Source: Halobacteriota archaeon
Lineage (GTDB): Archaea > Halobacteriota > Syntropharchaeia > DAOWMC01
Length of the DNA: 57,254 nt
Assembly (NCBI GenBank): GCA_034190245.1
Contig: JAXHTJ010000002.1
Span: 1 to 57,254 of the forward strand
Direction of reading: 5' to 3'
Shown here: positions 4,587 through 53,565 of the stretch, one piece after another
Numbering within the stretch: the stretch's first letter is position 1
How the letters are laid out: every line of letters starts with the position of its first letter
The notes under the pieces: generated by a model
Seen by the model: only the letters and a program-made list of their open reading frames with translations
Databases searched by the model: none
What the model was told of the DNA's origin: nothing
Program-made: the position numbers and the translations under genes

Positions 4587-4614
4587 CTCTAATAAGTAGA
4601 ATAACGGATAAGTG

Positions 4615-4622: not shown

Positions 4623-4684
4623 GGTTTAGAAAAAATAGCAACTAATATTGAATTGAGCCAGTGTCTCAATTCTATCTTTTAAAC

Positions 4685-5437: not shown

Positions 5438-5572
5438 CTTTTTTAAAAGATTTAAATTAAGATATTTATGTCATTTATAACATCTGTGTGGAATGAGATA
5501 AAGCTTATCACTGAAGTTTTGTCTTTCGAGCGAAAATTTCAAAGCGTGGTGAGAAGTCCCCTTTAGGGATGG

Positions 5573-7093: not shown

Positions 7094-7095
7094 GT

Positions 7096-9481: not shown

Positions 9482-9489
9482 TGTTATGA

Positions 9490-24010: not shown

Positions 24011-26242
24011 TCAGGCCGAGACTTCGAGCTTCGCATAGTCATGGAAGCTGTTTTCGCTAGCAGAGGCATCCAGAATCAAGAATGCAAGCTGATCATTACC
24101 GTTTATATAGCTGTCAATTCCACTTGTAGCACTCCACTCAAGCAGGAAGTCTGCATTTCCTGAGTCAGAATCCTTGTAGCCGGTTTCACCACCATCCCAG
24201 TTATTCGTATCATAATTGAAGACATAAAGCCTTAGAGTGTGTGATCCATCACCGTATCCTTCCCATGTAAACGAGAGCTCATCAATGGATGAAACACTCT
24301 CATCGATCCAGAAGTGGATTATCATTGTGCTCTCATCACCTCCGCTTTCATCGGGATTGATGTATCTGTTGGAGTCAGAATCTCCGCCAGTCGCATCCGA
24401 GTAGCTCAACCTTGTGTAAGCATCAGCCGCTACATCACTCACTTCTGTGTCACATTCCGATGGAAGCGTTGCCAGTGTGCCACCCTCTCCATTTAGGTCG
24501 TTCCAGTTATCCGAGTAGGTGCCGTATGCTCTGAAGTATGATCTTCCGTCAGTTGCATCGTAAGTTCTCGTCGTAGGTGGTTCTGGTGCGGTAGTCGCAG
24601 TGTGACTTACAGGTGTGCCGTTTATATTCCCGGTGGCATCTACGGTACGTGTAGAGATTGTGTGGCTCTCACTTGCGCTAAATCCGGATGCGTTGTAACT
24701 GGGTGAAGATGTGTTGGTCTTCCACACAGAGTCTATATAGACCATAACATGGCTGAAATCACTATCATTTGGATTTGTCCAGACCCAATTGATGTATGTT
24801 TGAGCGTACGTGTTGTTGGAAAGCCCTGTTACACTTGCAGGAGGTGTTGTATCAGGTCCTGGAGTTGGTGTGGGTGTAGGTGTAACTGTGGCCGTTGAAG
24901 ATGTACCTCTTGAGAATGATATCTCCGATCCCTTCACAAGAATGTCTACGGCTAAATTTGAGGTATAGTTGACGGTCACATTGTTACCATCAATTGAGAA
25001 TGTGATGTTTTCTACATGAGAGAGTGAGTTGTTCCATAACTCTGGATATGAGGTATAGATCGTGAGACTGAGATTTGTTGCTTCAACAGAAGTGGACGTG
25101 CCCTCGATATATTTTGCTACCAGCGTCCTGGGATCTGGCGATCCAAATGTACTTTCTGTTGCGTTGGTCCAGATTATATTTACGCCATCTCCACTCACCA
25201 TTGACTGAGGCATTTCTGTATACGAGTAATTGTCCCATGAGTAGTTCTGTATCGAGAGCCCATGCTCATAAACAAGCGTAGGAGAGTTATGGAAGTAAAA
25301 ATAATTTGGGGAGAATGATATGGTGCTGGTGGTGTAATTGAAGCTCACGTTACTCTCTATCACATTCTTAATCGTCAGATCGTCAAAATATATCCGTCCT
25401 GTGGAGGGGGCTGCGTCATTATCCTGAATATAAACGATCCGATCTACCGATTCATAACTCCCCCACTTGCTGTTCCAGTCGGCACCGATAGGAAATTCGT
25501 ATTGATGCCAGTTGCTATCGATTGAGTACATATCCTGATAAGGACTATTTATCCAGTTTGTATCTGTGAGATTCTCCTGGGTTCCCCATAACCTGTAGAG
25601 AAGAGAATGTCTGGAGGAACCAGTTCCATATGCAACTCCGATCGCCTGTATCTCTGCTTCAGTATCTCCCCTGATCCACACTGACATAGTGGTGTTTGCA
25701 GTGAGTGTAAATGGTGTAAATGCTTGCTCTTGCCAATCGTTTCCTGAAATGGTGAGCGCATACGTTCCATTGTACGCCGTCGTGCCAACAGAGACATTAG
25801 TGGGTGATGAATGCTGCGTGCTCCCATTTACGCCATTGTATGAAACGAGCACAACATTACCGGGAGTTTCATAGTCCTCGTCAAACATGGTTGTACTTGT
25901 TTGGGTTGTATAATCTACACGTATCCATCTATCATTTTTAAGAGATAGCTCCCCTGCACTGCTTTGAGTCGGGTTTCTGAATACCACTCTACTCGGATAT
26001 GAAGCTCCCATATGTATGACAGTTGCTTTAGGAAAATCGTTAACAACAGAATCCTCTATATTGGTTTTAAGTTTCAAGAAGTCATCGTATACCTCCACAA
26101 GATGGTCACTTTCAACCTTCCTATTCCACTCCGGCACCTGATACGTCTGAACAAGTCCAAGAAAGATGACGGCTATCGCTAAAAGAAGTATTGCACCGAT
26201 AAGCTCCGATACGGCATCATCATCTTTTAATAGATTTTTCAT
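24011..26242 (-). CDS. Large surface protein with an archaeal type IV pilin-like (class III signal peptide) N-terminus
   Basis: The N-terminus is MKNLLKDDDAVSELIGAILLLAIAVIFLGLV: a charged leader followed by a hydrophobic helix, as in archaeal pilin/DUF1628-type N-termini. It also has a TPTPTPTPGP linker, an Fn3-like segment and many N-x-S/T sequons. It starts 3 nt after the platform gene. Confidence 0.6.
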   Translation of the reverse strand: MKNLLKDDDAVSELIGAILLLAIAVIFLGLVQTYQVPEWNRKVESDHLVEVYDDFLKLKTNIEDSVVNDFPKATVIHMGASYPSRVVFRNPTQSSAGELSLKNDRWIRVDYTTQTSTTMFDEDYETPGNVVLVSYNGVNGSTQHSSPTNVSVGTTAYNGTYALTISGNDWQEQAFTPFTLTANTTMSVWIRGDTEAEIQAIGVAYGTGSSRHSLLYRLWGTQENLTDTNWINSPYQDMYSIDSNWHQYEFPIGADWNSKWGSYESVDRIVYIQDNDAAPSTGRIYFDDLTIKNVIESNVSFNYTTSTISFSPNYFYFHNSPTLVYEHGLSIQNYSWDNYSYTEMPQSMVSGDGVNIIWTNATESTFGSPDPRTLVAKYIEGTSTSVEATNLSLTIYTSYPELWNNSLSHVENITFSIDGNNVTVNYTSNLAVDILVKGSEISFSRGTSSTATVTPTPTPTPGPDTTPPASVTGLSNNTYAQTYINWVWTNPNDSDFSHVMVYIDSVWKTNTSSPSYNASGFSASESHTISTRTVDATGNINGTPVSHTATTAPEPPTTRTYDATDGRSYFRAYGTYSDNWNDLNGEGGTLATLPSECDTEVSDVAADAYTRLSYSDATGGDSDSNRYINPDESGGDESTMIIHFWIDESVSSIDELSFTWEGYGDGSHTLRLYVFNYDTNNWDGGETGYKDSDSGNADFLLEWSATSGIDSYINGNDQLAFLILDASASENSFHDYAKLEVSA

Positions 26243-26245
26243 CTT

Positions 26246-28285
26246 TTAACCTATGACAAAATTGAATACAACATAAGCTATGGCAACCATTATCACCGAG
26301 TGTTTTATTCCTGCATATCCGCTACCCTCTCCCATCTCACCGGCGATGAGTCCGGAGAAGAATCCCTGTATCACGGCTGCATGGAAGAAGAGTCGGTTGT
26401 ATAATTCAACATCAAAGCTCTGCTCCGGGATTTTAAAATTACTCGTCATCTCAGGATCGTCGGGTAAGATGGTTAAAAATGATGACGAGAGGATATATAG
26501 TATAACCAAAAAGACTATAAACGATATATATATCAGTATCATATAAGTGGACATATCAGCCGATCTTGCTCGCTTGAGCCTCTCACCAATTTCGGAATCT
26601 TTAGCAGCGATGCTAAGTACTTCTCTTATATTTCCAGTCGCCTCACTTGCCCTTGTGATAAGAGTTATTGTCCGTGAGATGGCAGTCGTTTTTACACGCC
26701 TCTCAAATTTAACGAGTGATTCGGTAGTTCCTCTCCCCCAAGAAATATCTTTCCAGATTATCTTTATCTCAGAGCTCAGGATACCCAAATTTGAGTCTGC
26801 CAGCATTCCAATGGCCCTTGAAAGGGTTATACCGGCTTCATTGGTACTGGCAAGCCTCTTTAAGAAGTTTGGTATCGCACTCTCTATCTTTCTTATCTTC
26901 ATCCTCCGCATCTCGTAAAATAATGTAAATGGTGCGAGTAGTATGAGAATCGTAATTACGATGGGGCCATCCAGAATATCGATTATTCCAGTACCTGTTG
27001 AAAAAGCAATACCCGAAGCTGGTCTTGAGACTGAATCAAGTGCAAAGGCAGGTGATCGAGTTAGAACCACGAAGACTAAATATAATATTGAGACTGGTGC
27101 GCTGAAGAAGATACTATGTGACGGTTTCTCGTAGAAATGCTTGAATGGGTCTTTCAGCATTTTTTCCATCCTTGCCCTCTTATCCACCATCATCAGCTCT
27201 TTGAACAATGCATCATCATACTCTGATCGCAAACTCGTCTCCAATACATCATCATATTCATCAAGTTCTTTTGACCTGACGTATGTATGAGCAGATCCTT
27301 CCTTGTCGGATATCGAGATGATGCTTAACAGAATAATGAACATAACCGAGCCTACCGGAACCAGTATATATATGATCATCTCGATCGTCCTTGAAGATCC
27401 GGAGCCTGCTATCCCCATCACTATGAGAATAGTTATCATAAACAAAGGACCTGCAACAAATGCGGTGACGTAGCTCTCCGCAACCATCCCAAGCGTATCA
27501 AGATAGCTCTTCTGTTCTTCTAAAGCATCGCTTTGATACTGCTCAGATTTGCTTGCAAAATAGGCTGTGATATCTCCACCGCTATCTATCACTGTGATCA
27601 GGCTGTCGATGAAATCCTTGAATTTTCCCGATGGAGTTCTCTCGCCTGCGTTATAAAGTGCATTCATCACATCCATACCAAAGAAAGTCATATCCCTTAC
27701 GATGAACTCCACCTCTTCTGCCGCATCCATAAATATATGGGTATGCTCACTGAGTGATTTGAAGATATCAATGATGTTCATGCCGCCTTTACTCATTGCA
27801 TGCATATAAGCGACAGAGTAAGGTAGTGATGCATCGATTCCTGTTCTTCTCACTGATGCTTTAAAGGATGGATACCACATAAGTAAGCGGTAAGTGAAGA
27901 AACTGAGTATTATCGGGAGTGACAGCGCCATTATCAACAAAAATATCCCCTTATGTGAAAGTGCAAAGTAGAATAGGCATCCACCAGCAACACCTCCGAC
28001 AACGGCGATAAGAAAGGTATAAAAATAAACATAAGAGACATAAGTCTCGACAGTTTTTGGTATATGCGCCTGTCTAAGACTGGCCTTCAGTCCTGAGTAC
28101 CGTTCTCTTCTCTCTTCAGCCCATCTACCGAATAATTTGATCGCAGGCGCATCAATTCTTTGAAGGACATTCTCATCAGACAAGCCCTTCCTCTTAGCTT
28201 TATCATCAATCTTTTCAGAGAACTTGTCATCATCCAGACCATCTAAAAAGTTGGCTCCCTTACCAGTTATTTTCAGCTCACTCAC
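26246..28285 (-). CDS. FlaJ/TadC-like type IV pilus/archaellum platform membrane protein
   Basis: 679 aa with two T2SS-F-like repeats, each a soluble helical part followed by TM helices. It overlaps the ATPase gene by 8 nt. Confidence 0.75.
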   Translation of the reverse strand: MSELKITGKGANFLDGLDDDKFSEKIDDKAKRKGLSDENVLQRIDAPAIKLFGRWAEERRERYSGLKASLRQAHIPKTVETYVSYVYFYTFLIAVVGGVAGGCLFYFALSHKGIFLLIMALSLPIILSFFTYRLLMWYPSFKASVRRTGIDASLPYSVAYMHAMSKGGMNIIDIFKSLSEHTHIFMDAAEEVEFIVRDMTFFGMDVMNALYNAGERTPSGKFKDFIDSLITVIDSGGDITAYFASKSEQYQSDALEEQKSYLDTLGMVAESYVTAFVAGPLFMITILIVMGIAGSGSSRTIEMIIYILVPVGSVMFIILLSIISISDKEGSAHTYVRSKELDEYDDVLETSLRSEYDDALFKELMMVDKRARMEKMLKDPFKHFYEKPSHSIFFSAPVSILYLVFVVLTRSPAFALDSVSRPASGIAFSTGTGIIDILDGPIVITILILLAPFTLFYEMRRMKIRKIESAIPNFLKRLASTNEAGITLSRAIGMLADSNLGILSSEIKIIWKDISWGRGTTESLVKFERRVKTTAISRTITLITRASEATGNIREVLSIAAKDSEIGERLKRARSADMSTYMILIYISFIVFLVILYILSSSFLTILPDDPEMTSNFKIPEQSFDVELYNRLFFHAAVIQGFFSGLIAGEMGEGSGYAGIKHSVIMVAIAYVVFNFVIG

Positions 28286-29831
28286 TTATACATACCATCC
28301 CTTCAATTTCTTCTAAAACCGCATCTGGGTTAGTGAAGTATGATTGAACGACGCTCGAGAAATCTTTGTAGTTTCTGATCTCTCTCTCAACCATATATTC
28401 CAGAATTTTGTGCCTGTTCAGAAGCTCCATATCCAGTTCATCCCAGCTCCATCCCCTCTGCTCCATGATATCTCTTAGAATGTATGACTCACTAGGTCTT
28501 TCGTAAGTATCCGAGACCGGGTCCCACCGGAATACCTCATTGATTCTAATATCGTCGCTTCCTGGTTCAAATCCGAGAAACTCAACTATTGATTGAGCAC
28601 GCCTGACACGTTTTCCCCCCACATATGTCATTATCTGAATTGACATAAGATTCAACGACTGGAGCATGGCTCTTGGAACGTTGATCGGATCGTTCTCCAG
28701 GCGACTTATCGCCTCCTCAACACTTCCGGCGTGCATCGTTGAATAGGTGGTGTGTCCTGTCGACATAGCCTGAAACAACGTGAGTGCTTCACTGCCTCGC
28801 ACCTCACCAACGATCATGTACTCCGGACGTTGCCTCAATGCCTGACGGAGTAGTTCGTACATACCGATTTCGCCTTCACCACCCTTCGCAAACGATTCTC
28901 TTGTAATGCTTGCGATCCAATTCTCGTGATGTAACGTAAGTTCATGTGTATCCTCTATTGTTACGATCTTTGACATCGGCGGTATGAAGAGTGATACTGC
29001 ATTGAGACTCGACGTTTTACCCGAAGCCGTTCCACCGACAAATATGAGGCTCCTGTTGTTCTCTATTGCAAGCCACAGGTAAGCAATCGCTTCCAGAGGA
29101 AATGTATTGAAATCGATTAGATCGACCGGAGTGAACGGCTCTTCCCTGAATTTTCTGATCGTGAAAGATCCACCGCGAAGTGTAACCTCCCTTCCAAGGG
29201 ATGCCTGTAGCCTGGAGCCATCCGGCATCGTGGCATTCACGAGCGGATTACCAATCGATATGTGCTTGCCACTCTGTTGAGCAATATTTATTATAAAGGA
29301 GTCGAGGTGCTTCTCGCTGAAGACTATATTTGTCTTGATGTTCTGGTATCTTCTGTGGTACAAAAATATGGGTACATCAGTTCCATCACAGGATATATCT
29401 TCTATAAATGGATCCCTTATCAGTGCATCTATCCTCTTAAATCCGATATAATTCCTCTGTATGTAGTACAACAATTTATAGAGTGATTCCGGTGCCAGAC
29501 GTAGTCTGAAGTTACCAACGATCTCAAGCACCTTCTGCGTAAGAAGACTCTTTTTGTTCTCATCTTTTTCCAGTGTCAGAACGTCCAGTAGATCTTCATA
29601 TATCCTCTCAAGCAGCGTCTTCTCAAATGATGTTAGCTTCGGCTCAGCAACATAGTACAGATACTCCTTCTTATTCTCGTTGTACAGGATCACGATGAAT
29701 GCATAGGGTTCGTTGACCCAATACTGTTCTACTTCGGTGTAGCCCTCCAATCCATCAAAAACCGTCAGTTTACCGTCCTCTTCTGGATTATAGGGTGGCA
29801 GATAAAACTCTTTTTCAACTCTTCGGGGCAT
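28278..29831 (-). CDS. FlaI/ArlI-like type II/IV secretion family ATPase
   Basis: Walker A is FVGGTASGKTSSLN, Walker B/Asp box is MIVGEVRG, and the His box is TGHTTYSTMHA. The N-terminal domain is FlaI-like. Confidence 0.85.
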   Translation of the reverse strand: MPRRVEKEFYLPPYNPEEDGKLTVFDGLEGYTEVEQYWVNEPYAFIVILYNENKKEYLYYVAEPKLTSFEKTLLERIYEDLLDVLTLEKDENKKSLLTQKVLEIVGNFRLRLAPESLYKLLYYIQRNYIGFKRIDALIRDPFIEDISCDGTDVPIFLYHRRYQNIKTNIVFSEKHLDSFIINIAQQSGKHISIGNPLVNATMPDGSRLQASLGREVTLRGGSFTIRKFREEPFTPVDLIDFNTFPLEAIAYLWLAIENNRSLIFVGGTASGKTSSLNAVSLFIPPMSKIVTIEDTHELTLHHENWIASITRESFAKGGEGEIGMYELLRQALRQRPEYMIVGEVRGSEALTLFQAMSTGHTTYSTMHAGSVEEAISRLENDPINVPRAMLQSLNLMSIQIMTYVGGKRVRRAQSIVEFLGFEPGSDDIRINEVFRWDPVSDTYERPSESYILRDIMEQRGWSWDELDMELLNRHKILEYMVEREIRNYKDFSSVVQSYFTNPDAVLEEIEGMVCISE

Positions 29832-29853
29832 TAGATGGTAATTTTATTGAACT

Positions 29854-29886
29854 AATATATATACTACATGGCCATAAATCACGTAT
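29854..29886 (+). promoter_or_regulatory. Palindromic TATA (TATATATA, 29856-29863) between divergent operons, plus the AAATCACGTAT box (29876-29886); motif copy D
   Basis: The minus-strand ATG (29831) lies 24 nt from the TATA and the plus-strand ATG (29891) lies 27 nt from it. Neither has an SD, which is consistent with leaderless divergent transcripts. Confidence 0.35.
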
Positions 29887-29890
29887 ATTT

Positions 29891-30787
29891 ATGGGCATAA
29901 GGTTAATTATACTTACCATTCTTAGTACAACTTTGGTGATCGAATTTATATTACATAGGACCCCAACCGGGATTGATTCACTTGATTCTGTCATAGGGGG
30001 TGGGTTCCCATCGGGATCACTTGTGTTGCTTTTAGGAGATGCCGGTGCTGGTAATTTCGAATTTGCATACACATCTGCAATCATGATATCCAATCTAAAA
30101 CGCAAGAACAATGGGCATTCAGAAGACGATGAACTGAAAATTCCCGAAAAAGTCTGCTATATCTCATTCACAAAGTCAGAAGCAGATATAATGGGGGAGC
30201 TCACACGTATCTTCAATCCCCAGGATGTCGATATTCTATTAAAAAATTTGTCTTTTAAGGATTTATCCACCATCTATCACCATCACTCCATCACACCACC
30301 TACATGGATATCGGAGCCGGAGAAGCAGACCCTGACTTCTATTAAAGGTAACAATCTCGGTCTTCTGGAAGAACTTATAACATATTTAAATTCGAATGCC
30401 GCAAACAGCCTTGTGATTCTTGATTCACTAACAAACCTCGTCAGGGCCTCTTACAGCTCGATAGAATGGCAGGACCTGATATCATTTTTTGAGGGTCTTC
30501 AGAGGGTTTCCAAGAGATGGGATGGAGTTATTTATGCAATCCTCGGTGCAAAGATACTCGATGAGAATAAAGAGTCTGAACTCGCTGATTGTGCAGATGG
30601 TGTACTGATCTTTGATTGGATGCAAAAAGGGGAATTTTCAAGGCAACAGATCATGTATGTCAAGAAGTTCAGAGGTCTCCTGCCCCAACTGACGAAGGAC
30701 AACATATCCAAATTTGAGACGAGTGTCACCATACCGAATGGATTTGAGATGAAGAATGTGAGGCTAATAAGGGGGCACAGTAGATGA
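29891..30787 (+). CDS. KaiC/RecA-superfamily protein with a degenerate Walker A and an N-terminal hydrophobic segment
   Basis: PTGIDSLDSVIGGGFPSGSLVLLLGDAGAGNFEF has no GK[ST]. A Walker-B-like strand reads SLVILDSLTNL. The N-terminus is IRLIILTILSTTLVIEFIL. The ORF-track start at 29795 overlaps the divergent ATPase gene, so I use the ATG at 29891. Confidence 0.6.
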   Translation: MGIRLIILTILSTTLVIEFILHRTPTGIDSLDSVIGGGFPSGSLVLLLGDAGAGNFEFAYTSAIMISNLKRKNNGHSEDDELKIPEKVCYISFTKSEADIMGELTRIFNPQDVDILLKNLSFKDLSTIYHHHSITPPTWISEPEKQTLTSIKGNNLGLLEELITYLNSNAANSLVILDSLTNLVRASYSSIEWQDLISFFEGLQRVSKRWDGVIYAILGAKILDENKESELADCADGVLIFDWMQKGEFSRQQIMYVKKFRGLLPQLTKDNISKFETSVTIPNGFEMKNVRLIRGHSR

Positions 30788-31473
30788 AGAGGGTTGGAAC
30801 AGGGATAACAGGGGTAGATAAGATGATAGATGGAGGCATCCCCGAAGGGCACATAGTAGCGCTCGTTGGGCCTTTTGGTGCCGGAAAAACGACCTTTGCA
30901 CTCCAATTCATAAGGGATGGACTCATAAATGATCAAAGCTGCCTTTATATTAGTCTGGAAGAGAGCGATGATAGACTCCTGAAGACTGCACTCAATTACG
31001 GGTGGGACTTAAAACCATATGTTGATAGCGAAAAATTCTCGATATTCAAAGTCGAAGCCGCCGATATAACAAACTCGTTAATACGCCTTGAGAGCACCTT
31101 TCCTACCATGATAAAATCCACAGGGGCAAGTAAGGTAGTAATAGATCCAATTACTCTCTTTGAGATGTTATTCGATGATGAAGCAAAGAGAAGAAAGAAT
31201 GTCTTCGACCTGTTAAAGATAATAAGCGATACAGGAGCAACTACGCTGATCACATCGGAAGTTAATAAGGATCGGACCGGTTCCCGGTACGGATTGATTG
31301 AGTACGTTGTTGACGGTGTCATCATATTACATAAGATCAGGGATGAATTCCGCAGGGTGCACCACGCCATCCAGATAGACAAGATGAGATGGTCAGATCA
31401 CTCAAAGGAGATAAAACCGTATGAGATCACGAAAGAAGGGGTAGAAGTTTATATGAAGTCGAAGGTATATTGA
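30784..31473 (+). CDS. Single-domain KaiC-like ATPase (ArlH/FlaH-size)
   Basis: GITGVDKMIDGGIPEGHIVALVGPFGAGKTTFALQF carries an intact Walker A, and VVIDPITLF is the Walker B. It is 229 aa and its start overlaps the stop of the upstream gene (ATGA). Confidence 0.8.
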   Translation: MKRVGTGITGVDKMIDGGIPEGHIVALVGPFGAGKTTFALQFIRDGLINDQSCLYISLEESDDRLLKTALNYGWDLKPYVDSEKFSIFKVEAADITNSLIRLESTFPTMIKSTGASKVVIDPITLFEMLFDDEAKRRKNVFDLLKIISDTGATTLITSEVNKDRTGSRYGLIEYVVDGVIILHKIRDEFRRVHHAIQIDKMRWSDHSKEIKPYEITKEGVEVYMKSKVY

Positions 31474-31483
31474 GGGGAGAAAG

Positions 31484-32083
31484 ATGAGTCAGATGATGGA
31501 TGATGTACTATACAGTAAGATCGAGATGGCTCTGTTCAGAAGTCATCTGGAAGCGATCGTATCGGTCACAATTGCATCCGCAGATATCTTAAGCGCGGAT
31601 ATGGCACTGCTCAAGTTTTTAGTCAAGGATAAGAAGATGAAGGGATCCATCATCTGCGTGGATCGCGATTATAAACAGATGGAGGAGCTGGCAAAGAGTA
31701 TTGATCTGGGAGGTGATGATCTCTATTACATCGATGCTGTAACTTTATACAATGGCAAAAACCCGGACGCAAGTGCAAGTGACAAAACTGTCTTTATAGA
31801 CTCTCCTTCGGATCTCACATCGATGGATATTGCCATTACTGATATGATAGAGAAACTTGAGAATGGTTTCTTATTGTTCGATTGCCTTTCGTCTTTAAAA
31901 CTGTATAACGATTCAAAAAAGCTCGGAATATTCATGCATGACCTCGCCTCAAAACTGAGACTGTATGGTGTATTCGGCGTAATTTTACTGATAGAAGAAG
32001 ATTCTGATACCTGGCTGCACAGCATAATCAAGGCTTTTTGTGATAAGAATGTCGTTTTAAAGACGGGTAGGGATATAACATGA
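31484..32083 (+). CDS. KaiC/RecA-like pseudo-ATPase, DUF835-like (no P-loop)
   Basis: It is collinear with the C-terminal domains of the 36136 and 39657 proteins. Examples: GSIICVDRDY matches PGLCISRKNS, and IDSPSDLTSMDIAITDMIEKLENGFLLFDCLSSL matches IHPDDLFTKLQSTLINFIKEANDSVILLDGLEYL. The P-loop position reads IASADILS. Confidence 0.45.
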   Translation: MSQMMDDVLYSKIEMALFRSHLEAIVSVTIASADILSADMALLKFLVKDKKMKGSIICVDRDYKQMEELAKSIDLGGDDLYYIDAVTLYNGKNPDASASDKTVFIDSPSDLTSMDIAITDMIEKLENGFLLFDCLSSLKLYNDSKKLGIFMHDLASKLRLYGVFGVILLIEEDSDTWLHSIIKAFCDKNVVLKTGRDIT

Positions 32084-32760
32084 CCGGCACGATAGAAAGA
32101 ATACCATCCGGAATCCGGGGACTCGATGAGATGATCGAGGGGGGATTTCCTTTTCCTTCGACCATACTCGTTGCTGGTGGCACCGGTACTGGTAAGACAA
32201 CACTCTCGATGCAGATTTTGTTTGAAAGCGTCAAAAAGGGAGATAAATGCATCTATTTTTCGACGTTTAGCGAATCGTCTAAATGGACTTTGAAATTCTT
32301 ATCAGGTTTTGATTTTATAAATGAAGAGCTTACAAATGAGATTGAGTTCGTGGAGCTTGGGGTCTATATAAGGGCTGCACGCTCTGTTGAAGAGATACTT
32401 GACGTGGTGGAGAAGAAGATCGAGATGACGAAGCCCAAAAAGATAATCATAGATCCGATATCGATAGTCGGCGATATCCTGAAAAAAGATCATTATAGAA
32501 CTTTCCTGTATGATCTGACCACGCTCACCAAGAATCAGGATGTACTCACGATACTGACCGGAGAGATGCTGCCTGACTCTACATACCCACCAACACTTGC
32601 ATTTATATCGGATGGTGTGATCCTGCTTTACTATGACGTTGAGGGTGAGAAGAGAAGGCACCGCATCGAGATTTTAAAGATGAGGGGCACGAATCATTAT
32701 ACAGGAAGATATCCTTTTGAGATAGATAAGAGTGGCCTAACAATCTACCCGACTAAGTAG
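32080..32760 (+). CDS. Single-domain KaiC-like ATPase
   Basis: IPSGIRGLDEMIEGGFPFPSTILVAGGTGTGKTTLSMQ carries an intact Walker A, and IIIDPISIV is the Walker B. It is 226 aa and its start overlaps the stop of the upstream gene (ATGA). Confidence 0.8.
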   Translation: MTGTIERIPSGIRGLDEMIEGGFPFPSTILVAGGTGTGKTTLSMQILFESVKKGDKCIYFSTFSESSKWTLKFLSGFDFINEELTNEIEFVELGVYIRAARSVEEILDVVEKKIEMTKPKKIIIDPISIVGDILKKDHYRTFLYDLTTLTKNQDVLTILTGEMLPDSTYPPTLAFISDGVILLYYDVEGEKRRHRIEILKMRGTNHYTGRYPFEIDKSGLTIYPTK

Positions 32761-34717
32761 TATCATCATCACTTGTTACAGGTAGTGATACAAAGAATTT
32801 GGATCCAACGCCCTCCTCTGATTCTACCCATATCTTTCCATTGTTCCTACTCAATATCTTCGATATGAGGCTCAGTCCCAGACCTTCGCCTTCAACAGTA
32901 CTTTGGCCGACCCTGTGAAATATTATGAAGACATCTTTCAGATGCCTCTCTGGGATGCCGATTCCATTATCTTCAACACAGTATACGACCTGATCACCCT
33001 CTCTTACCCCTGTGATCTTGATAAATCCCTCTTTTTCAGGATCACGGTATTTCAGTGCATTGTCTACGAGGTTGGAAAATACCTGATTGATCTGTACAGC
33101 GTCACCGACACAGGGGGGCAGTTCACCAATCGATAGATTCATCCCTGCCTCTTTTACCCTGAACTCAAAGCTCTTTTCGATCTCGGATAACATCGAGTTC
33201 ATATCAAGATCCTCAAACTCAAGGGCTGCGCGTCCAAGCCGTGAAAGACGAAGTAGTCCACCAAGAAGTGTATCCATCTTGAGTATGCTCGTCTGGATGA
33301 ACTCCAGTGTTTCAGGAATATCCTCTTCGAAGATGGGTTTTAATTTATTCTGAACCTCTGGCGGAACCTGATCATCATTCAACAAAGAAGACAGTTCCTC
33401 CATAGAATATTTAAGCTCCTTGCTGAAGCCCTGGACATTCAAAAGAGGTGAGCGAAGGTCATGTGATGCGACATAGACGATCTGCTCCAATTCCTTATTC
33501 TTTTCATAAATCTCTTCATTTAGCCTTTCACGTTCCTTTTCTGCACGTTTGCGCTCGGAGACGTCCCTGATAAAGACCAGATCGGCTGGCCTGCCTTCCC
33601 GTTCAATCATGGCCATATTTACATCTGTATATAAGATTTTACCGTCTTTTCTTATAAACTCCAATTCAAGATGGGTGGGTGCATTTTTCCCTTTTTGTCT
33701 GCTTTCATAATTCTCTTTAACCCGATCTTTAAAATCTGGCGATACAAAATTTAGTAACTTCTCTTCCTCGAGATCCTCAATTTCATAACCAAGCATTTTT
33801 GCCATCATGCTATTTGCAAATTTAAAACTCCCATCCTGTATGATCACTATACCGTCGTTTGCCCTCTCAACGAGATTTCTGTACTTCTCTTCCGACTCTC
33901 GAAGTGCCTCTTCCATCCTTTTGATCTCAGTGATATCCATCCCCATACCCACAAGATATAGCCTCTCGGAGATAATGGTCCTCAGACCGGTGAAGAAATG
34001 TGGAATCTCATTTCCGCTCTTTGCTGTAAGCTTTGCCTCTGCAGTGGCTTCGCCCTTCGCAACTACTTCTTGTAGCTCTTCTGCCATGATTTTCTTCTCT
34101 TCTCCGCTGAAAAAATCGAGAATATTCATATTCTTTATCTCTTCGTGAGAATAACCTGAAATTTTTTCGGCATTCTTATTCCACCGTAAAAGTTGCCCTT
34201 TGTTATCAAAGAGATAAAAGACCCCTGGCAAGCTGTTTATCACAGAATCAGAAAATTTCTTCTCCATCAATAGATCCTCTTCAACCCTTTTGCGTTCAAT
34301 GGCATATTTGGTTGTCCGCGAAAGTAGGTCTCCGTCCACATGTCCTTTGACTAGGTAGTCCTGTGCCCCCTCCCGCACCGCCTCTGTGCCGATGGATTCA
34401 TCATTAAGACCTGTTAGAACTATAATCGGCATTTCCGGTGCGTGAGTATGCAACCTTACGAATGTGTCAAGCCCCCAACTGTCAGGGAGTCCAAGATCAG
34501 ACAAGACTACATCAAAATATTCCTCATCGAGGATTTTAAATGCCTCTCTTAAACTTTCAATCTGGATTACATCGAACTTGACAGTGCCAGCCTCTATAAG
34601 CATCTCCCTTATCAACCTTGCATCTCCAGGGTTGTCCTCAATCAAAAGAATTCTAATTGGCTTCTCAATCTTCTCAGTCTCAACTACAGTGCTCTGCATC
34701 CTAACCCCCTTCCCCAA
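32753..34717 (-). CDS. Hybrid sensor histidine kinase (REC-PAS-PAS-HisKA-HATPase)
   Basis: The REC domain reads ILLIEDNPGD...VLSDLGLPD. Two PAS domains are followed by the H-box ASHDLRSPL, the N-box FSNLVDNALKY and the G-box DNGIGIP...GEGLGLS. Confidence 0.85.
   Translation of the reverse strand: MGKGVRMQSTVVETEKIEKPIRILLIEDNPGDARLIREMLIEAGTVKFDVIQIESLREAFKILDEEYFDVVLSDLGLPDSWGLDTFVRLHTHAPEMPIIVLTGLNDESIGTEAVREGAQDYLVKGHVDGDLLSRTTKYAIERKRVEEDLLMEKKFSDSVINSLPGVFYLFDNKGQLLRWNKNAEKISGYSHEEIKNMNILDFFSGEEKKIMAEELQEVVAKGEATAEAKLTAKSGNEIPHFFTGLRTIISERLYLVGMGMDITEIKRMEEALRESEEKYRNLVERANDGIVIIQDGSFKFANSMMAKMLGYEIEDLEEEKLLNFVSPDFKDRVKENYESRQKGKNAPTHLELEFIRKDGKILYTDVNMAMIEREGRPADLVFIRDVSERKRAEKERERLNEEIYEKNKELEQIVYVASHDLRSPLLNVQGFSKELKYSMEELSSLLNDDQVPPEVQNKLKPIFEEDIPETLEFIQTSILKMDTLLGGLLRLSRLGRAALEFEDLDMNSMLSEIEKSFEFRVKEAGMNLSIGELPPCVGDAVQINQVFSNLVDNALKYRDPEKEGFIKITGVREGDQVVYCVEDNGIGIPERHLKDVFIIFHRVGQSTVEGEGLGLSLISKILSRNNGKIWVESEEGVGSKFFVSLPVTSDDDTT
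32778..33556. repeat. Direct repeat copy 1 (779 bp), covering the kinase-core coding region
   Basis: Base-by-base comparison with 34760-35538 (offset 1982) found only two mismatches, at 32809 and 32869. Confidence 0.9.
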
Positions 34718-34719
34718 AA

Positions 34720-35769
34720 TTATTCATAATTCTTACGCCCTTCTTTTTTATCGATAACAACAGGTAGTGATACAAAGAATTTGGATCCCACGCCCTCCTC
34801 TGATTCTACCCATATCTTTCCATTGTTCCTACTCAATATCTTCGATATGAGACTCAGTCCCAGACCTTCGCCTTCAACAGTACTTTGGCCGACCCTGTGA
34901 AATATTATGAAGACATCTTTCAGATGCCTCTCTGGGATGCCGATTCCATTATCTTCAACACAGTATACGACCTGATCACCCTCTCTTACCCCTGTGATCT
35001 TGATAAATCCCTCTTTTTCAGGATCACGGTATTTCAGTGCATTGTCTACGAGGTTGGAAAATACCTGATTGATCTGTACAGCGTCACCGACACAGGGGGG
35101 CAGTTCACCAATCGATAGATTCATCCCTGCCTCTTTTACCCTGAACTCAAAGCTCTTTTCGATCTCGGATAACATCGAGTTCATATCAAGATCCTCAAAC
35201 TCAAGGGCTGCGCGTCCAAGCCGTGAAAGACGAAGTAGTCCACCAAGAAGTGTATCCATCTTGAGTATGCTCGTCTGGATGAACTCCAGTGTTTCAGGAA
35301 TATCCTCTTCGAAGATGGGTTTTAATTTATTCTGAACCTCTGGCGGAACCTGATCATCATTCAACAAAGAAGACAGTTCCTCCATAGAATATTTAAGCTC
35401 CTTGCTGAAGCCCTGGACATTCAAAAGAGGTGAGCGAAGGTCATGTGATGCGACATAGACGATCTGCTCCAATTCCTTATTCTTTTCATAAATCTCTTCA
35501 TTTAGCCTTTCACGTTCCTTTTCTGCACGTTTGCGCTCTGTAATGTCCCTAAACAATAGTAGATTTGATGCTATTCCTTTGTAATTAAAGTCACCTACGG
35601 CATTGAGTGCATCCAACAGCAATCTAATTTGATCTTCATAGTAATCAATCAGCTCGATTGATTCCTTTCTGCTTTCTGGCACATTCTCTTTTTGTAAAGG
35701 AGTATTATCGTCCTGATTTTCAAAAATGGTTGAATGTCCCGTTTTGAACATCTTTTCTAATGTCTCCAT
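34720..35769 (-). CDS. Histidine kinase with a short unique N-terminus and a duplicated kinase core
   Basis: From ERKRAEKERERL to FFVSLPV the C-terminal part is identical in protein sequence to the 32753 gene. The N-terminal roughly 85 aa are unique. Confidence 0.8.
   Translation of the reverse strand: METLEKMFKTGHSTIFENQDDNTPLQKENVPESRKESIELIDYYEDQIRLLLDALNAVGDFNYKGIASNLLLFRDITERKRAEKERERLNEEIYEKNKELEQIVYVASHDLRSPLLNVQGFSKELKYSMEELSSLLNDDQVPPEVQNKLKPIFEEDIPETLEFIQTSILKMDTLLGGLLRLSRLGRAALEFEDLDMNSMLSEIEKSFEFRVKEAGMNLSIGELPPCVGDAVQINQVFSNLVDNALKYRDPEKEGFIKITGVREGDQVVYCVEDNGIGIPERHLKDVFIIFHRVGQSTVEGEGLGLSLISKILSRNNGKIWVESEEGVGSKFFVSLPVVIDKKEGRKNYE
34760..35538. repeat. Direct repeat copy 2 (779 bp)
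   Basis: See copy 1. The identical antisense ORFs in the track (32903-33136 = 34885-35118; 33087-33353 = 35069-35335) are by-products of this repeat. Confidence 0.9.
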
Positions 35770-36043
35770 TTTTTATCCTCCATTGTATGTTTAAGTTTCT
35801 AAAAACATGCCTCTCCAACAATTAAGAGATAAGTATAATTTTACGTCTGACTGTTTACTTTTCATCAGCTTGCACTCGGATTCTGATCTTTTAAGTTCAG
35901 TAACCCCTTTGGGGTATTTTTTATTTCAAACATTTCATTTAAAAGTCGGTTTTTTTACGTCCATCGTTTATCCAATCCCCCATTAACATTGTATTTTCAT
36001 TCATCGCTGGTTCTCTGTTTAAGTGATATTAACCCCCACAATA

Positions 36044-36081
36044 ATACGGGATTTATGAACACATATATATACATTTTGACC
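36044..36081 (-). promoter_or_regulatory. Shared promoter-like motif, copy A
   Basis: The minus strand reads GGTCAAAATGTATATATATGTGTTCATAAATCCCGTAT, followed by a leader homologous to that of copy B (GTATTATT..GGGGTTA...GGGGATTGGAT..ATGGAC). Confidence 0.35.
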
Positions 36082-36135
36082 GTCAATTACCAGATCCAAT
36101 GCAAAATTTCATAATTTGAGATAATTGAGAACGGC

Positions 36136-38169
36136 TCAATCATCCACCCCACAAAATAACTCCATCTCTTTCTTCAAAGCATGAAATCCCCTGGGGTCTA
36201 GCGTCTTTGAATCCAGTGGAATTATCAACCGTGAAGTCGATGCCATCAGATAATCGTTAATTGCCTGAACGAATTTTAGTACAGTGGCAAAATCGTTCTG
36301 GGATACCAGGTATTCCAACCCATCGAGTAGAATAACGCTATCATTTGCTTCTTTTATGAAATTTATAAGCGTAGATTGTAATTTTGTGAAGAGATCATCC
36401 GGGTGTATGCAGGCCACCTCTGACACTTCATTTCTTGTAAGCCATATGACAGGCGTCTTCTCCAGATGGTATCTCTTCTTCACCTTTACCGAGTTCTTCC
36501 GTGAGATGCATAAGCCGGGTTTTCCGTGTTTCACGAGATCTACAAATATCTTATAGCCCAGATCGGAAGCTTCGTCGTCGATAAGATAAGCATCGCCCTG
36601 GTCGAGTTCATACTCCATCTCCGTATCTATTCTCTCCTCTTCAACAGGTTCTATTGAAAGGCCAGTAAGCTCCGATAGATCCTTTAGGGTGACGATGAGT
36701 CCATTCTCCTCTCCAGCTTCTTTTATAACGGCTGTAGAAAGACTCAGAGGTATCCTGGTTCCATCCTTCTTTGTGAAATCTATATTGAAGTCCTCTTTAC
36801 CTTCCATTTTTATCTCCAGTCCCATAATTGAAGATAGGGGCTTATTCTCATACTCTTCGACTCCAAGCAGCTTTTTTGCGCTTTTGTTCATCGTGTTTAC
36901 ATTCTGGGCAAGATCAGTTGAGATTGTTGCGACTGGGGATTCTTCGATCAGATTTTCCAGCCTTTCTTTGTATGTTAGTAGTGCTCTTTCTGCACGTTTG
37001 CGCTCGGTGATGTCACTCATGATTCCTATTGAACCGGTCATTTCACCATTGTGATCTTTGAGTACACTCAATGAGATGACCACGTCGATGACTTCATTTC
37101 CTTTATTGATGACTCTGGTCTCAAACTGATGCTTCACACCCTTACGCCTCACGTGCTGCTTCCTCAGTCTTTCCCATTCATCCGGGGAGTATAGAGAGCT
37201 TACCGGTCTCATGTAAAGATCGTCCCTGCCCATCCCGAGAAGATCCTCAGCGTGCTTGTTCCAGGAGACTATCCTCTCTTTTTCATCAGTGACAGTTATC
37301 GCAACGGCCGAATTCTCAAAGATGGTTCGGTACATCTCTTCGGCTAGCTGGAGCTCTAACTCCACTCGTTTTCGTTCCGTTATATCTGATACGAAGCCTT
37401 CTATGATCTCAAGCTCCCCATCTTCGGTAAATTGTCCCGATCCCTTTTCTAGGACCCATTTCTCCTCACCGTTTACGGTGTGGATCCGGTATGTGAGCTG
37501 AAACGGACGTTTCTCTTCCACTGCCGAGTCGATCTCAGAAAGGACCATCTTCCGATCGTCCTCGTCTATGAACTGCATATAAGCGATCCCTCCCAGATCG
37601 GATAACTGGTAGCCCGTGAGCCCCTTAACACCCTCACTTGCAAATACCATCGTCCTATCTTCGTCGTTTCGACACCGATATGCCATGCCAGGAAGATTCT
37701 TCATCAGATTTGAGATCGATCGCTGGCTTTTACGTAGCCTGGCCTCGGCCTCTCCCAATCGCCTCTCGACTGTGATCTGCTCAACAACCTGTTTTAACAC
37801 CTGTGGTAACAGATCCATGAAGCTGGCATCTTTCACAATATACTCACGAGCGCCGAGCTTCATCATCTCTACTGCTATCTTCTCATCACCCTGACCTGTG
37901 ACAACTATAAATGGAATGTCACTCCCCTTCTCGCGGAGCTTCTCAACAATCTGCTTTCCCGTCATATCGGGCAACCGATAATCGAGCAGGAGCAGGATAT
38001 ACTGTTTTTTATCTATCTTAATAATGGTTTCGTCACCATTTGATGCGAACTCAGTCTGAAAACCGATCCTATCAAAAGTTCTTTTGATGAGGTGATGTAA
38101 CTGCTCATCGTCCTCGGCAACAAGGATGGTACTTTTAACTTCGACACCATTTTCGCTCAATTGCATCAT
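36136..38169 (-). CDS. Response-regulator receiver-PAS(x3)-DUF835-like domain protein
   Basis: The REC domain reads ILVAEDDEQ...LLLDYRLPDM...KD. PAS repeats end in ITERKR junctions. The C-terminus reads KHGKPGLCISR...PVIWLT...VILLDGLEYL...IIPLD. I set the start at MMQLSENG (38169) because the ORF-track extension to 38382 overlaps the upstream gene by about 200 nt. Confidence 0.75.
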   Translation of the reverse strand: MMQLSENGVEVKSTILVAEDDEQLHHLIKRTFDRIGFQTEFASNGDETIIKIDKKQYILLLLDYRLPDMTGKQIVEKLREKGSDIPFIVVTGQGDEKIAVEMMKLGAREYIVKDASFMDLLPQVLKQVVEQITVERRLGEAEARLRKSQRSISNLMKNLPGMAYRCRNDEDRTMVFASEGVKGLTGYQLSDLGGIAYMQFIDEDDRKMVLSEIDSAVEEKRPFQLTYRIHTVNGEEKWVLEKGSGQFTEDGELEIIEGFVSDITERKRVELELQLAEEMYRTIFENSAVAITVTDEKERIVSWNKHAEDLLGMGRDDLYMRPVSSLYSPDEWERLRKQHVRRKGVKHQFETRVINKGNEVIDVVISLSVLKDHNGEMTGSIGIMSDITERKRAERALLTYKERLENLIEESPVATISTDLAQNVNTMNKSAKKLLGVEEYENKPLSSIMGLEIKMEGKEDFNIDFTKKDGTRIPLSLSTAVIKEAGEENGLIVTLKDLSELTGLSIEPVEEERIDTEMEYELDQGDAYLIDDEASDLGYKIFVDLVKHGKPGLCISRKNSVKVKKRYHLEKTPVIWLTRNEVSEVACIHPDDLFTKLQSTLINFIKEANDSVILLDGLEYLVSQNDFATVLKFVQAINDYLMASTSRLIIPLDSKTLDPRGFHALKKEMELFCGVDD

Positions 38170-38185
38170 ACTCCTTTTGAAGATA

Positions 38186-39613
38186 TTACCCCACAGAAAC
38201 GGCCAAACAAGCCATTTTTCTCTTTTTTGGGATCGTGAAATAAAATGTAGAACCTTTGCCTTCCCCGCTACTTTCGGCCCATATCTTACCGCCCTGCTTC
38301 TCGACGATGCGCTTGCAAATTGAGAGGCCAAGACCCGATGAATCGAGATCATGTCTGGATGCATCAGCCTTGTAGAACTCATCGAAGATTTGACTCAACT
38401 CTTCCCCGGCCATACCTACCCCTGTATCCTTCACTGATACTATGACAAAATCATCACAATTTTTTGAATTGATGGTTATTGTACCGCCGCCCTCATAGCT
38501 GTACTTTACGGCATTGGAGATGAGATTGTCAATGATCTCCTTACCATACTTTGTAATAAACTTCGCCTCAACACGACTCGCCTCTCCTCCCGACATCAGG
38601 TTCTTGAATTGCTTCAGGCAGTGTACTATGCTGTCAGGATGTATTATGTCAAACAAGGATAGATCAATAACCTCCTCCTTTGTATAACCGAGTGTCTTCA
38701 ACCATGTTCGGTTAACAAAAAGCAGGTGACCGCTGGGACTGACGCTTTGAATGAGGTCATTTGCATTGTCAAAGAAGTCCTGCAACCGTGCCTGACTCAC
38801 ACGTAAGTTCTCTTCAGCCTTCTTACGTTCGGTGATATCAGATATGAAACCTTCCAATGCCTCTAATTCTCCATCGGGGGAAAACACACCCGATCCCTTC
38901 TCCCAGACCCATTTTACTCCACCATCTAAAGTATTGATCCGATAGAAGAGTTCGAAAGGACGTTTCTCTTCCACGGACGATTGAATCTCTGTAAAGACCA
39001 TCTCTTTATCATCCGGGTGAATGAGTAAGGAATAACTGATCCCTTTCAGATGGGAGTGCTCATGGCCGGTGAGTTCCACACCTCCCTCGCTTGAGAATAT
39101 CATCGTCCTATCCTCGTCATTTTGACACCTGTACGCCATGCCGGGAAGGTTCTTCATCAGGTTAGAGATAGCACGCTCTCTTTCGTGCAATTTGGTCTCA
39201 GTTTCGACCAAATGTCTTTCGGTCTTAAGTTGCTCGCTCACGCGCTCAACAATCTGAGGCAGAAGATCGATCAAACCCGGATCTTTGACAACATAGTCGC
39301 GAGCACCGAGTTTCATCATTGTCACAGCAGTATTTTCATCACCGTTTCCAGTGACCACTATGAAAGGGATATTGTGATGTGTTCTGGCAAGCTCCTCTAT
39401 CACATGCTTTCCGGTCATATCCGGTAAGCTGTAATCCAGCAAGACAAGGGTCCTTGGGCTTTCGTTTATCTTTGCAATGGCTTCGGCGCCGTTTGATGCG
39501 GTATCAGTCTGAAAACCATGCCTATTAAGAGTATTTATAATCAGGCGAGATAACCCTTCATTATATTCTACCACGAGAATTTTCTCTTCAACGCCTGCAC
39601 TTCCCTCATTCAT
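38186..39613 (-). CDS. REC-PAS-(truncated PAS)-HATPase protein lacking a DHp/H-box
   Basis: The REC acidic pocket reads VVEYNEG, where paralogs have EDDE. The acceptor context LLDYSLPDM is kept. The second PAS runs straight into the N-box (KYGKEIIDNLISNAVKYS, nt about 38533). No SHDLR-type H-box is present. Confidence 0.7.
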   Translation of the reverse strand: MNEGSAGVEEKILVVEYNEGLSRLIINTLNRHGFQTDTASNGAEAIAKINESPRTLVLLDYSLPDMTGKHVIEELARTHHNIPFIVVTGNGDENTAVTMMKLGARDYVVKDPGLIDLLPQIVERVSEQLKTERHLVETETKLHERERAISNLMKNLPGMAYRCQNDEDRTMIFSSEGGVELTGHEHSHLKGISYSLLIHPDDKEMVFTEIQSSVEEKRPFELFYRINTLDGGVKWVWEKGSGVFSPDGELEALEGFISDITERKKAEENLRVSQARLQDFFDNANDLIQSVSPSGHLLFVNRTWLKTLGYTKEEVIDLSLFDIIHPDSIVHCLKQFKNLMSGGEASRVEAKFITKYGKEIIDNLISNAVKYSYEGGGTITINSKNCDDFVIVSVKDTGVGMAGEELSQIFDEFYKADASRHDLDSSGLGLSICKRIVEKQGGKIWAESSGEGKGSTFYFTIPKKRKMACLAVSVG

Positions 39614-39656
39614 ACCAGATTAAAACCCCCATCAGTCCATGGCACTTTTTAAACCT

Positions 39657-43558: not shown

Positions 43559-43634
43559 AGAGATCCCCCTCCTTCAAACCAAATGCCATTTAGTTTTTTC
43601 ATGTTTCATTTCCCTCCATTTTTTGTTTATTTCA

Positions 43635-46050: not shown

Positions 46051-46051
46051 A

Positions 46052-52271: not shown

Positions 52272-52284
52272 CCTTCTTCACTGG

Positions 52285-53534: not shown

Positions 53535-53565
53535 GTGTTTCATTATTTTGTGCTTCCAAATCAAC

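Follow-up and report, generated by a model that had tools for sequence, protein, structure and literature searches.

Archaeal type IV pili are, to our knowledge, driven by a single ATPase with no known retraction motor, and little is known of how their activity is switched; among KaiC-like partners of such ATPases, we know of biochemical studies on ArlH of the archaellum only. We analyzed a 57,254-nt stretch from an uncultured Halobacteriota archaeon of methane-cycle type (GenBank assembly GCA_034190245.1, contig JAXHTJ010000002.1, positions 1 to 57,254 of the forward strand; hereafter the window), in which an operon for a type IV pilus-like machine stands divergently to four KaiC-like genes, g1 to g4. 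An earlier reading from sequence alone (the sequence-only reading) had listed the seven genes, their P-loop strings and their junctions, and all of these were found as described. We show below that g1 and g2, a degenerate and an intact member of the KaiC family, accompany one clade of pilus ATPases with hardly an exception, and we propose how the two products could act on it.

In the published work on the archaellum, binding of ArlH to ArlI depends on nucleotide and is inhibited by ArlH autophosphorylation. The present locus resembles the ArlH-ArlI-ArlJ core in that single-domain KaiC-like genes are coupled to a hexameric ATPase and a polytopic platform protein, and the structural model of g3 matches FlaH (4yds). 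It differs in having a two-protein partner, a pseudo-ATPase with an ATPase, in place of ArlH alone, and in that the KaiC-like genes are usually divergent and not inside the operon. The locus could also be taken for a degenerate or divergent archaellum, or for a characterized pilus class such as Ups or the bindosome, given that FlaI is the best NCBIfam model for the ATPase and that some databases label its homologues ‘flagellar protein FlaI’. However, every equivalog cutoff was missed: FlaI scored 393 bits against 550, ArlJ 83.5 against 550, ArlH at most 63 against 215, BasE 225 against 1000 and UpsF 55.7 against 400. Among the scanned open reading frames (ORFs) of at least 100 amino acids (aa) in the window there were no archaellins, small ones included, and no FlaF/G/C/D/E/X (ArlF/G/C/D/E/X) genes, as the sequence-only reading had noted, and the closest solved homologue of the ATPase is not FlaI (see below). 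Because all cutoffs were missed, profile searches place the machine in no characterized archaellum or pilus class; for the window this explanation is effectively refuted and extremely improbable.

KaiC-like regulators of non-archaellar pili have been predicted from genomes before. Makarova, Koonin and Albers (2016; PMC4858521) predicted KaiC-family ATPases to be regulators of archaeal type IV pili, including those of Methanomicrobia operons, and annotated inactivated KaiC-like genes beside FlaI/TadC in Archaeoglobus. The idea is the same and the gene families are probably the same, g1 and g2 possibly being arCOG01172 and arCOG01173 of that work, but the paper gives it one sentence and table rows, with no pairing of pseudo-ATPase and ATPase, no near-obligate linkage, no finger residues and no DUF7504-KaiC pair. 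The locus is thus a refinement of an existing idea, not a system of a new type, and the opinion of the sequence-only reading that the combination had not been described was overstated. What is new is the near-obligate linkage of g1-g2 to one pilus-ATPase clade, the residue logic of the pseudo-ATPase/ATPase pair and the composite four-gene form. A genomic remark of 2016 thereby becomes a defined module, whose pair of genes is present in archaea of the methane cycle that are important in the environment (Methanoperedens, ANME-2 and Methanocellales). In the literature searched, we found no experimental work on the g1-g2 module and no paper linking Methanoperedens, KaiC and pili.

Three further systems bear comparison. 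The flagellar-like type IV pilus locus of Pyrobaculum calidifontis (Kreutzberger et al. 2023; PMC10334743) is likewise non-archaellar and contains a gene of the KaiC ATPase family, which its authors call unusual and see as bearing on how the archaellum arose; unlike the window, it is crenarchaeal and has just one such gene, and no pseudo-ATPase partner is reported for it. The PilB3-PilC3 adhesion-pilus system of Haloferax volcanii is similar in that the window ATPase passes the PilB3_N and PilB3_C models (30.9 and 31.4 bits, cutoff 27; Pfam) and its haloarchaeal relatives, about 50% identical, form a neighboring clade; it is unlike the window in that the sampled haloarchaeal loci lack g1-g2. 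KaiC-like proteins were reportedly described as signaling hubs by Makarova and colleagues in mBio in 2017. Galperin et al. (2018; PMC5847659) describe DUF835 and MEDS as inactivated KaiC (iKaiC) domains of archaeal signaling. The g1 and g3 products share with these a KaiC fold with ruined ATPase motifs, and DUF835 is a weak match of g3; they differ in that g1 is a family of its own, tied to the pilus ATPase, and g3 is an unfused DUF7504 protein.

The ATPase (28278-29831, minus strand; 517 aa, Walker A GGTASGKTS) matched T2SSE (PF00437) at 115 bits against a cutoff of 24.9. Its best solved homologue was chain 2oap, with 494 bits over residues 30-510, vs. 274 bits for FlaI 4ii7. Deposited as ‘Type II secretion system protein’, this entry (2oap, with 2oaq) is afGspE of Archaeoglobus fulgidus, a hexameric secretion-superfamily ATPase for which we know of no established cellular role. 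From these matches the window protein is assigned to the afGspE/PilB3 type of hexameric secretion-superfamily ATPases. The platform gene (26246-28285, minus strand; 679 aa) starts within an 8-nt overlap, GTGAGTGA, with the ATPase stop; judged by two stretches of T2SSF (PF00482, 100.9 bits in all), its product is a polytopic membrane protein of the TadC/PilC/ArlJ-like kind, and BasF (50.6 bits, cutoff 1300) is missed along with ArlJ and UpsF. Three nucleotides downstream (TAA-AAG-ATG) begins a gene for a secreted, pilin-like protein of 743 aa (24011-26242, minus strand). It carries the class III signal peptide DDDA/VSELIGAILLLAIAV, the sole such motif found among the window ORFs in a signal-peptide scan, followed by a Thr/Pro linker and many N-x-S/T sequons, with sub-threshold matches to Pilin_N (20.9 bits), DUF7289 (16.8 bits; both Pfam) and TIGR02537 (17.6 bits; NCBIfam). 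In many metagenome loci, as also in L001 and L004 (sampled loci are given L numbers), a homologue is encoded next after the platform, and the protein is probably a minor pilin or adhesin. Neither a small major pilin nor a prepilin peptidase (PibD/EppA/FlaK) was detected among the scanned window ORFs of at least 100 aa, and either may be encoded elsewhere in the genome. Taken together, the profile matches identify the locus as a non-archaellar archaeal type IV pilus-like machine composed of an ATPase, a platform and a large pilin-like surface protein.

A large gene cluster elsewhere in the window (104-14390 and 14437-16065) codes for glycosyltransferases, for epimerases/dehydratases of sugar nucleotides and for a mannosyltransferase of the PMT type, and also for CARDB and fn3 surface proteins. 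This cluster may be relevant to glycosylation of the sequon-rich 743-aa protein.

The g1-g2 pair accompanies one pilus-ATPase clade

In the window, g1 (29936-30787; 283 aa from a GTG, the ORF also allowing ATG 29891) and g2 (30784-31473; a KaiC-type ATPase) are encoded on the plus strand and overlap by ATGA. The same start-stop overlap joins g3 (31484-32083, plus strand; DUF7504 family, inactivated KaiC-like) to g4 (32080-32760, plus strand; a second single-domain KaiC-type ATPase), and the 10-nt spacer from g2 to g3 contains GGGGAG. All four products are single-domain proteins of 199-283 aa.

We scanned the neighborhood of the ATPase in 80 archaeal loci, one genome per species, using phmmer annotation. 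Relatives of the ATPase were found in uncultured Halobacteriota, Methanoperedens, ANME-2, Methanocellales and Syntropharchaeia. A divergent pair composed of a weak-KaiC gene (~275-290 aa) and a KaiC gene (~231 aa) stands with ATPase orthologues (53-78% identity) of Methanoperedens, ANME-2, Methanocellales, other Halobacteriota, Methanoregulaceae and Methanomicrobiales, and every inspected orthologue with enough upstream sequence has it (L002, L004, L006, L007, L089). A Hadarchaeota locus (ATPase identity 47%), which is an outlier of the ATPase tree, has the g1-like gene, with no g2 before the contig end. On this neighbor-joining tree, which is crude, lacks support values and shows only how g1-g2-positive loci cluster, the pair is confined to the clade of the window ATPase and one adjacent clade, the latter made up of one locus each from Methanoregulaceae and Methanomicrobiales and one metagenome-assembled genome (MAG) labeled only Methanobacteriota. 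No g1-g2 pair was seen in the sampled loci of Methanosarcina, Methanomethylovorans, Methanolobus, Thermoplasmata, DPANN and haloarchaea, nor in those of TACK type (Bathyarchaeia and Thermoproteales relatives).

The reverse scan, in which metagenomes were searched with the g1 alignment, is the stronger test; it yielded 80 loci with 37-74% identity. The ATPase adjoins g1 in 68 of the 69 scorable loci, and in 65 of 66 g2 is the next gene after g1. Gene order varies: in L095 and L096 a single strand carries g1, g2, a g3-like gene, the ATPase and the platform, in L168 it carries the ATPase, the platform, g1 and g2, and in ANME-2-type loci (L007, L098-L102, L108, L110) the ATPase, g1 and g2 lie together with no adjacent platform gene. 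Genes beyond g2 differ in every lineage. The ATPase is thus the constant partner of g1-g2, and its own conserved partner is this pair only, not the four-gene set. The sequence-only reading had tied the KaiC-like genes as a whole to the pilus machine; the tie stands for g1-g2, which accompanies the ATPase orthologues of the window's clade, and falls for the set of four, which is limited to a narrow lineage. Synteny that is close to obligate in both search directions supports a functional tie between g1-g2 and the pilus-like ATPase.

The same counts bear on the possibility that the four KaiC-like genes belong to the two-component/KaiC island next to them (32753-46507) and adjoin the pilus operon by accident. 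The island does encode two REC-PAS-DUF835 proteins, DUF835 being an inactivated KaiC domain. Yet the ATPase-g1-g2 association holds in 68 of the 69 scorable loci, which span several orders, the genes beyond g2 change from lineage to lineage, and in the closest relative, L094, a phosphoenolpyruvate (PEP) synthase gene takes the place of the island. Incidental adjacency is effectively refuted by synteny and is very improbable.

The gene orders also bear on what kind of machine the ATPase serves. ATPase, g1 and g2 could form the core of a non-pilus machine for secretion, uptake or surface-protein display, with the pilin-like protein as cargo or anchor. Consistent with this, the window encodes one large pilin-like protein of 743 aa and no small major pilin, the ANME-2-type loci dispense with an adjacent platform gene, and the closest solved homologue of the ATPase was deposited under a secretion-system name. 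A further precedent is the Sulfolobus bindosome, whose pilus-like assembly machinery of type IV makes no pilus (PMC4858521). Against a non-pilus machine, most loci have the canonical order of ATPase, platform and pilin-like gene, archaeal type IV pili often have their major pilins encoded at other places in the genome (PMC4858521), BasE and BasF fall far short of their cutoffs, and the sister-clade operon of Methanosarcina, whose upstream genes are unrelated, runs ATPase-platform-Pilin_N-Pilin_N-DUF7289. We judge this alternative quite unlikely.

Several of the loci carry additional genes. In a Halobacteriota MAG (L002, 4651-9808), a gene for a MinD/ParA-type ATPase is inserted between the pilus ATPase and g1, and downstream of g2 stand a DUF7125 gene, the third KaiC-like one of the locus, and one gene each of the AF0774 family and of FIST/AF0772_C type. 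Downstream of g1-g2 in Methanocellales (L006, 3558-5840) are a Roadblock/LC7 gene, a fusion of KaiC with a Ras/Arf-like small GTPase and a KaiC gene, an arrangement that recalls polarity modules of the MglA/MglB type. In the ANME-2-type loci, g2 is followed by several same-strand proteins of 430-470 aa, at least one of which is weakly similar to the 743-aa protein. A KaiC-type gene lies on the same strand between the ATPase and split platform genes in an Aenigmatarchaeota (DPANN) locus (L073, 11602-12282) and in an unclassified uncultured archaeon (L076, 4575-5264). Its position there is ArlH-like, and no archaellum genes were detected at these two loci with the searches used.

Residue pattern of g1 and g2 and a proposed ring

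The g1 product matched the KaiC family at its N-terminus only (31 bits; Pfam), and its family profile matched structures of RecA, KaiC and RadA, the lowest E-value being 1e-14. Its AlphaFold 2 (AF2) model (predicted local distance difference test, pLDDT, 84) was paired by Foldseek with KaiC CI (E 2e-13), SSO2452 and PH0186 at template modeling (TM) scores of 0.73-0.77. In its P-loop, GDAGAGNFE, the Walker A lysine is missing, and the Walker B aspartate and a K-F-R-G finger are present. The loss is general: none of 72 non-redundant family members from the metagenome set has the lysine, which is replaced by N (36), D (18), S (7), E (6), H (3) or G (2). The glycine scaffold of the P-loop is kept, as are the Walker B aspartate (70/72) and K-F-R-G (71-72/72); the Hadarchaeota homologue retains GKS. 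Judged by its residues and predicted structure, g1 encodes a true pseudo-ATPase with a KaiC/RecA fold, and it forms its own family, tied to the pilus ATPase.

By contrast with g1, g2 has a complete catalytic set (GPFGAGKTT, LEE, VVID, KMR). Its product scored 191 bits vs. the Pfam KaiC cutoff of 26.6 and passed the archaeal KaiC model TIGR03880 (KaiC_arch_3; 259.6 bits, cutoff 249.45). Each of the elements GxxGxGK[ST], [ED][ED], Walker B aspartate and KMR is present in all 50 of the orthologues compared. The locus lacks the features of a bona fide circadian KaiC oscillator, which has tandem KaiC domains in a single chain and KaiB (and KaiA) partners: the four proteins are single-domain, circ_KaiC (TIGR02655) gave 103-107 bits, far below its cutoff of 546, and no KaiB domain was found among the scanned window ORFs. 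The division that the sequence-only reading had made, with genes 2 and 4 of the active type and genes 1 and 3 degenerate, agrees with these results, since the P-loop is intact in g2 and g4, lacks its lysine in g1 and is missing from g3. So does its assumption of a RecA fold for genes 1 and 3, both of which resemble KaiC/RecA according to AF2 and Foldseek.

The stop codon of g1 and the start codon of g2 overlap in 49 of 67 loci, so that the two genes are translationally coupled and their products would be made in fixed stoichiometry. The residue pattern of the pair is what one would expect if dead subunits of a heteromeric RecA-like ring still completed the active sites of their neighbors. On this basis we propose that g1 and g2 assemble into a KaiC/ArlH-like heteromeric ring, in its simplest form an alternating (g1-g2)3 hexamer. 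ATP would be bound and hydrolyzed by the g2 P-loop, and g2 might autophosphorylate; the K-F-R-G finger of g1 would be supplied in trans to g2. With the finger coming from g1 and ATP held by g2, every second interface alone would be catalytically competent, and the residue signature of the pair thus predicts which interfaces these are. The ring would dock onto the cytoplasmic face of the hexameric pilus ATPase, where its nucleotide or phosphorylation state would permit or block oligomerization or activity of the ATPase, as ArlH does with ArlI. What the sequences show is the gene content, the folds, the conserved residues, the operon fusions, the translational coupling and the near-obligate synteny with the ATPase; ring formation, docking and the direction of regulation are modeled on that ArlH-ArlI precedent, and subunit alternation is likewise an inference. 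The g3-g4 pair would most likely add an input or adaptor layer to the g1-g2 ring.

That an ArlH-like heteromeric ring of g1 and g2 acts directly on the afGspE/PilB3-type ATPase, with g3-g4 as a lineage-specific input, is the explanation that we favor, and we hold it to be slightly more probable than not. Such a ring would explain how a one-motor pilus is gated and would inform how the archaellum acquired ArlH. A bolder version, which we consider unlikely, has the alternating heterohexamer beneath the ATPase serve as a nucleotide or phosphorylation switch, for example an assembly-retraction toggle or a motor lock, and makes it a second, separately elaborated core of KaiC ring and pilus ATPase. 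If true, this switch ring would be a living analogue of the step that yielded the archaellum ArlH-ArlI core, widespread in Methanoperedens, ANME-2, Methanocellales and relatives.

Several observations weigh against direct action on the ATPase. The g2 product is nearer to cyanobacterial-type KaiC (up to 167 bits against KaiC structures) and to PH0186/SSO2452 than to FlaH/ArlH; no FlaH entry appeared at E ≤ 1e-5 in the g2 structure search. All four genes miss the ArlH equivalog (cutoff 215), with g1 at 43, g2 at 38 and g4 at 63 bits, and for both reasons the analogy with ArlH is one of function, not orthology. Sister ATPase clades do without a KaiC-like neighbor (Methanosarcina, Methanomethylovorans and most of the sampled haloarchaeal loci), and one g1 homologue, 74% identical, is an orphan that lacks both ATPase and g2 and is flanked by a MATE-like ORF and a convergent histidine kinase (L093, 2453-3316), the one exception among the 69 scorable loci. 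The role of g3-g4 here is the weakest link, because that pair also occurs without pilus genes. Finally, divergent transcription is the classic layout of an expression regulator.

The last of these points leads to the main rival, in which the KaiC-like proteins are an upstream signaling switch or timer that controls expression of the pilus operon through other partners and never docks on the ATPase. GvpD, for gas vesicles, and KaiC acting through SasA/RpaA are models for such a switch. The greater likeness of g2 to KaiC proper than to FlaH agrees with it, as does the highly conserved control region with a 12-nt-arm palindrome that the two divergent units share. KaiC-family proteins have been proposed as general archaeal signaling hubs (PMC5847659 and PMC10983859), relatives of g3 are fused to sensor and adaptor domains, and the window operon abuts an 11-gene two-component island. 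However, no DNA-binding or other output domain was found in g1-g4 (Pfam/NCBIfam), g1-g2 lies inside the structural operon in L095/L096 and L168, and the linkage tracks the ATPase even where there is no adjacent platform gene. The island, too, is not conserved beside the operon in the close relative L094. We consider a signaling switch plausible, at well below even chances. If there is no ring, the locus would be one more case of KaiC-type signaling genes beside their target operon.

The divergent control region and the g3-g4 pair

The control region (29832-29935) lies between the starts of the ATPase and g1 genes. The sequence-only reading had given it 60 bp and had suggested that g1 may be membrane-tethered; both statements hang on the start codon and neither survived. 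A hydrophobic N-terminus arises only if g1 starts at ATG 29891. The g1 homologues begin about 10 residues ahead of a conserved PTGI motif, the counterpart of ATG 29891 in L094 is out of frame and reaches a stop, and the deposited gene call of 283 aa agrees with GTG 29936. The hydrophobic stretch is translated AT-rich intergenic DNA and is unconserved, and the tether was rejected as a start-codon artifact. With g1 starting at GTG 29936 and not at ATG 29891, the gap to the ATPase gene is about 104 nt.

A palindromic TATA-like element, AATATATATA, is located at 29853-29862, about 27 nt from the ATPase ATG, a position that would fit a leaderless ATPase transcript. It is followed by an inverted repeat with 12-nt arms, ATGGCCATAAAT-N7-ATTTATGGGCAT (29868-29898), which is unique in the window (0.05 such palindromes expected by chance). 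L089 and L094, in which the flanking proteins are only ~72-77% identical, share the region in strongly conserved form, the inverted repeat included. From sequence, AATATATATA may act as a promoter and the inverted repeat is a candidate operator. A scan for sigma-70 promoters and intrinsic terminators gave no enrichment, these models being uninformative for an archaeon.

The g3 product matched DUF7504 (34 bits, cutoff 27), with KaiC (19.8 bits) and DUF835 (17.6 bits) below threshold (Pfam). It is truncated and lacks both the P-loop and the Lys/Arg finger, and a Walker B-like aspartate is present. Its AF2 model, built from a 4-sequence alignment, is of moderate confidence (pLDDT 68; predicted TM score, pTM, 0.68), and Foldseek matched it to KaiC (E 4e-6, TM 0.58) and to FlaH 4yds (E 9e-5); the g3 profile alone, searched against the PDB by sequence, gave no match. 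The model thus points to a KaiC/RecA fold. The g3 family comprises 1453 representative clusters at E ≤ 1e-3 in a full HMMER search, and 41 of 42 sampled members match DUF7504, vs. 10 of 42 with a weak match to DUF835. DUF7504 relatives are sometimes fused to Cache-HAMP, TPR, KaiB or V4R domains; g3 itself is stand-alone, with no REC or PAS fusion. A search of 5.8 billion proteins returned only three close g3 homologues, and the two whose contigs were read (P0122 in L090 and P0124 in L089) show the same g2-g3-g4 context.

The g4 product is a further intact KaiC (142 bits, cutoff 26.6; Pfam) with the motifs GGTGTGKTT, IIID and KMRGT, and with SE in place of the EE of g2. The sequence-only reading had seen in the four genes a duplicated module of pseudo-ATPase and ATPase. 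Tandem duplication of a two-gene module was rejected, since g2 and g4 are only 29% identical and g1 and g3 have no detectable similarity (profile-profile probability 2.8%) and belong, from their sequences, to different families of inactivated KaiC. A g3-g4-like pair also occurs in L091, which has no pilus genes, and there the g4 orthologue (241 bits) follows the g3 homologue with overlapping codons. These three findings indicate that g3-g4, a pair of inactive and active type, is a module of separate origin that joined the g1-g2 operon within a narrow lineage. The four-gene form was seen in the window, L089 and L094 only, and L090, a 2.3-kb fragment, shows g2-g3-g4. DUF7504 genes lie near g1-g2 in a few other lineages too (L095/L096, L168, L171, L172).

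The L091 genes stand in the order V4R, KaiC, DUF7504 (the g3 homologue), g4 orthologue, KaiC and V4R (227-3875). In Haloplanus (L020, 9147-9881) a DUF7504-like ORF (48 bits) is divergent to the pilus ATPase, an arrangement not seen in the other sampled haloarchaeal loci.

Other features of the window

Outside the pilus-like locus, the window holds the glycosylation/sugar-nucleotide cluster, housekeeping genes, the two-component island and a ribosomal RNA (rRNA) operon. The island (32753-46507, minus strand) is made up of eleven signal-transduction genes. Five encode histidine kinases, namely three REC-PAS hybrids, one PAS-histidine kinase and one plain kinase; the others encode the two REC-PAS-DUF835 proteins, a CheC/CheX-like phosphatase and three stand-alone receivers. 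Its repeats of histidine kinase and REC-PAS-DUF835 genes suggest tandem duplications, and the ~197-nt overlap of the ORFs at 36136-38382 and 38186-39613 suggests a miscalled start. As the island is not conserved beside the operon in L094, we do not tie it to the pilus system.

A gene for a MoxR-like AAA ATPase (52285-53184) lies beside one for a 400-aa protein with no Pfam match (together 51069-53184), some 20 kb away from the pilus-like locus. In PMC4858521, MoxR/vWA pairs are predicted to be pilus-associated regulators. The archaeal rRNA operon (53564-57254), which accounts for the rise in G+C over the same interval, consists of the 16S gene (53564-55047), tRNA-Ala(TGC) (55130-55202) and a 23S gene of which 1982 model positions are present before the window end cuts it.

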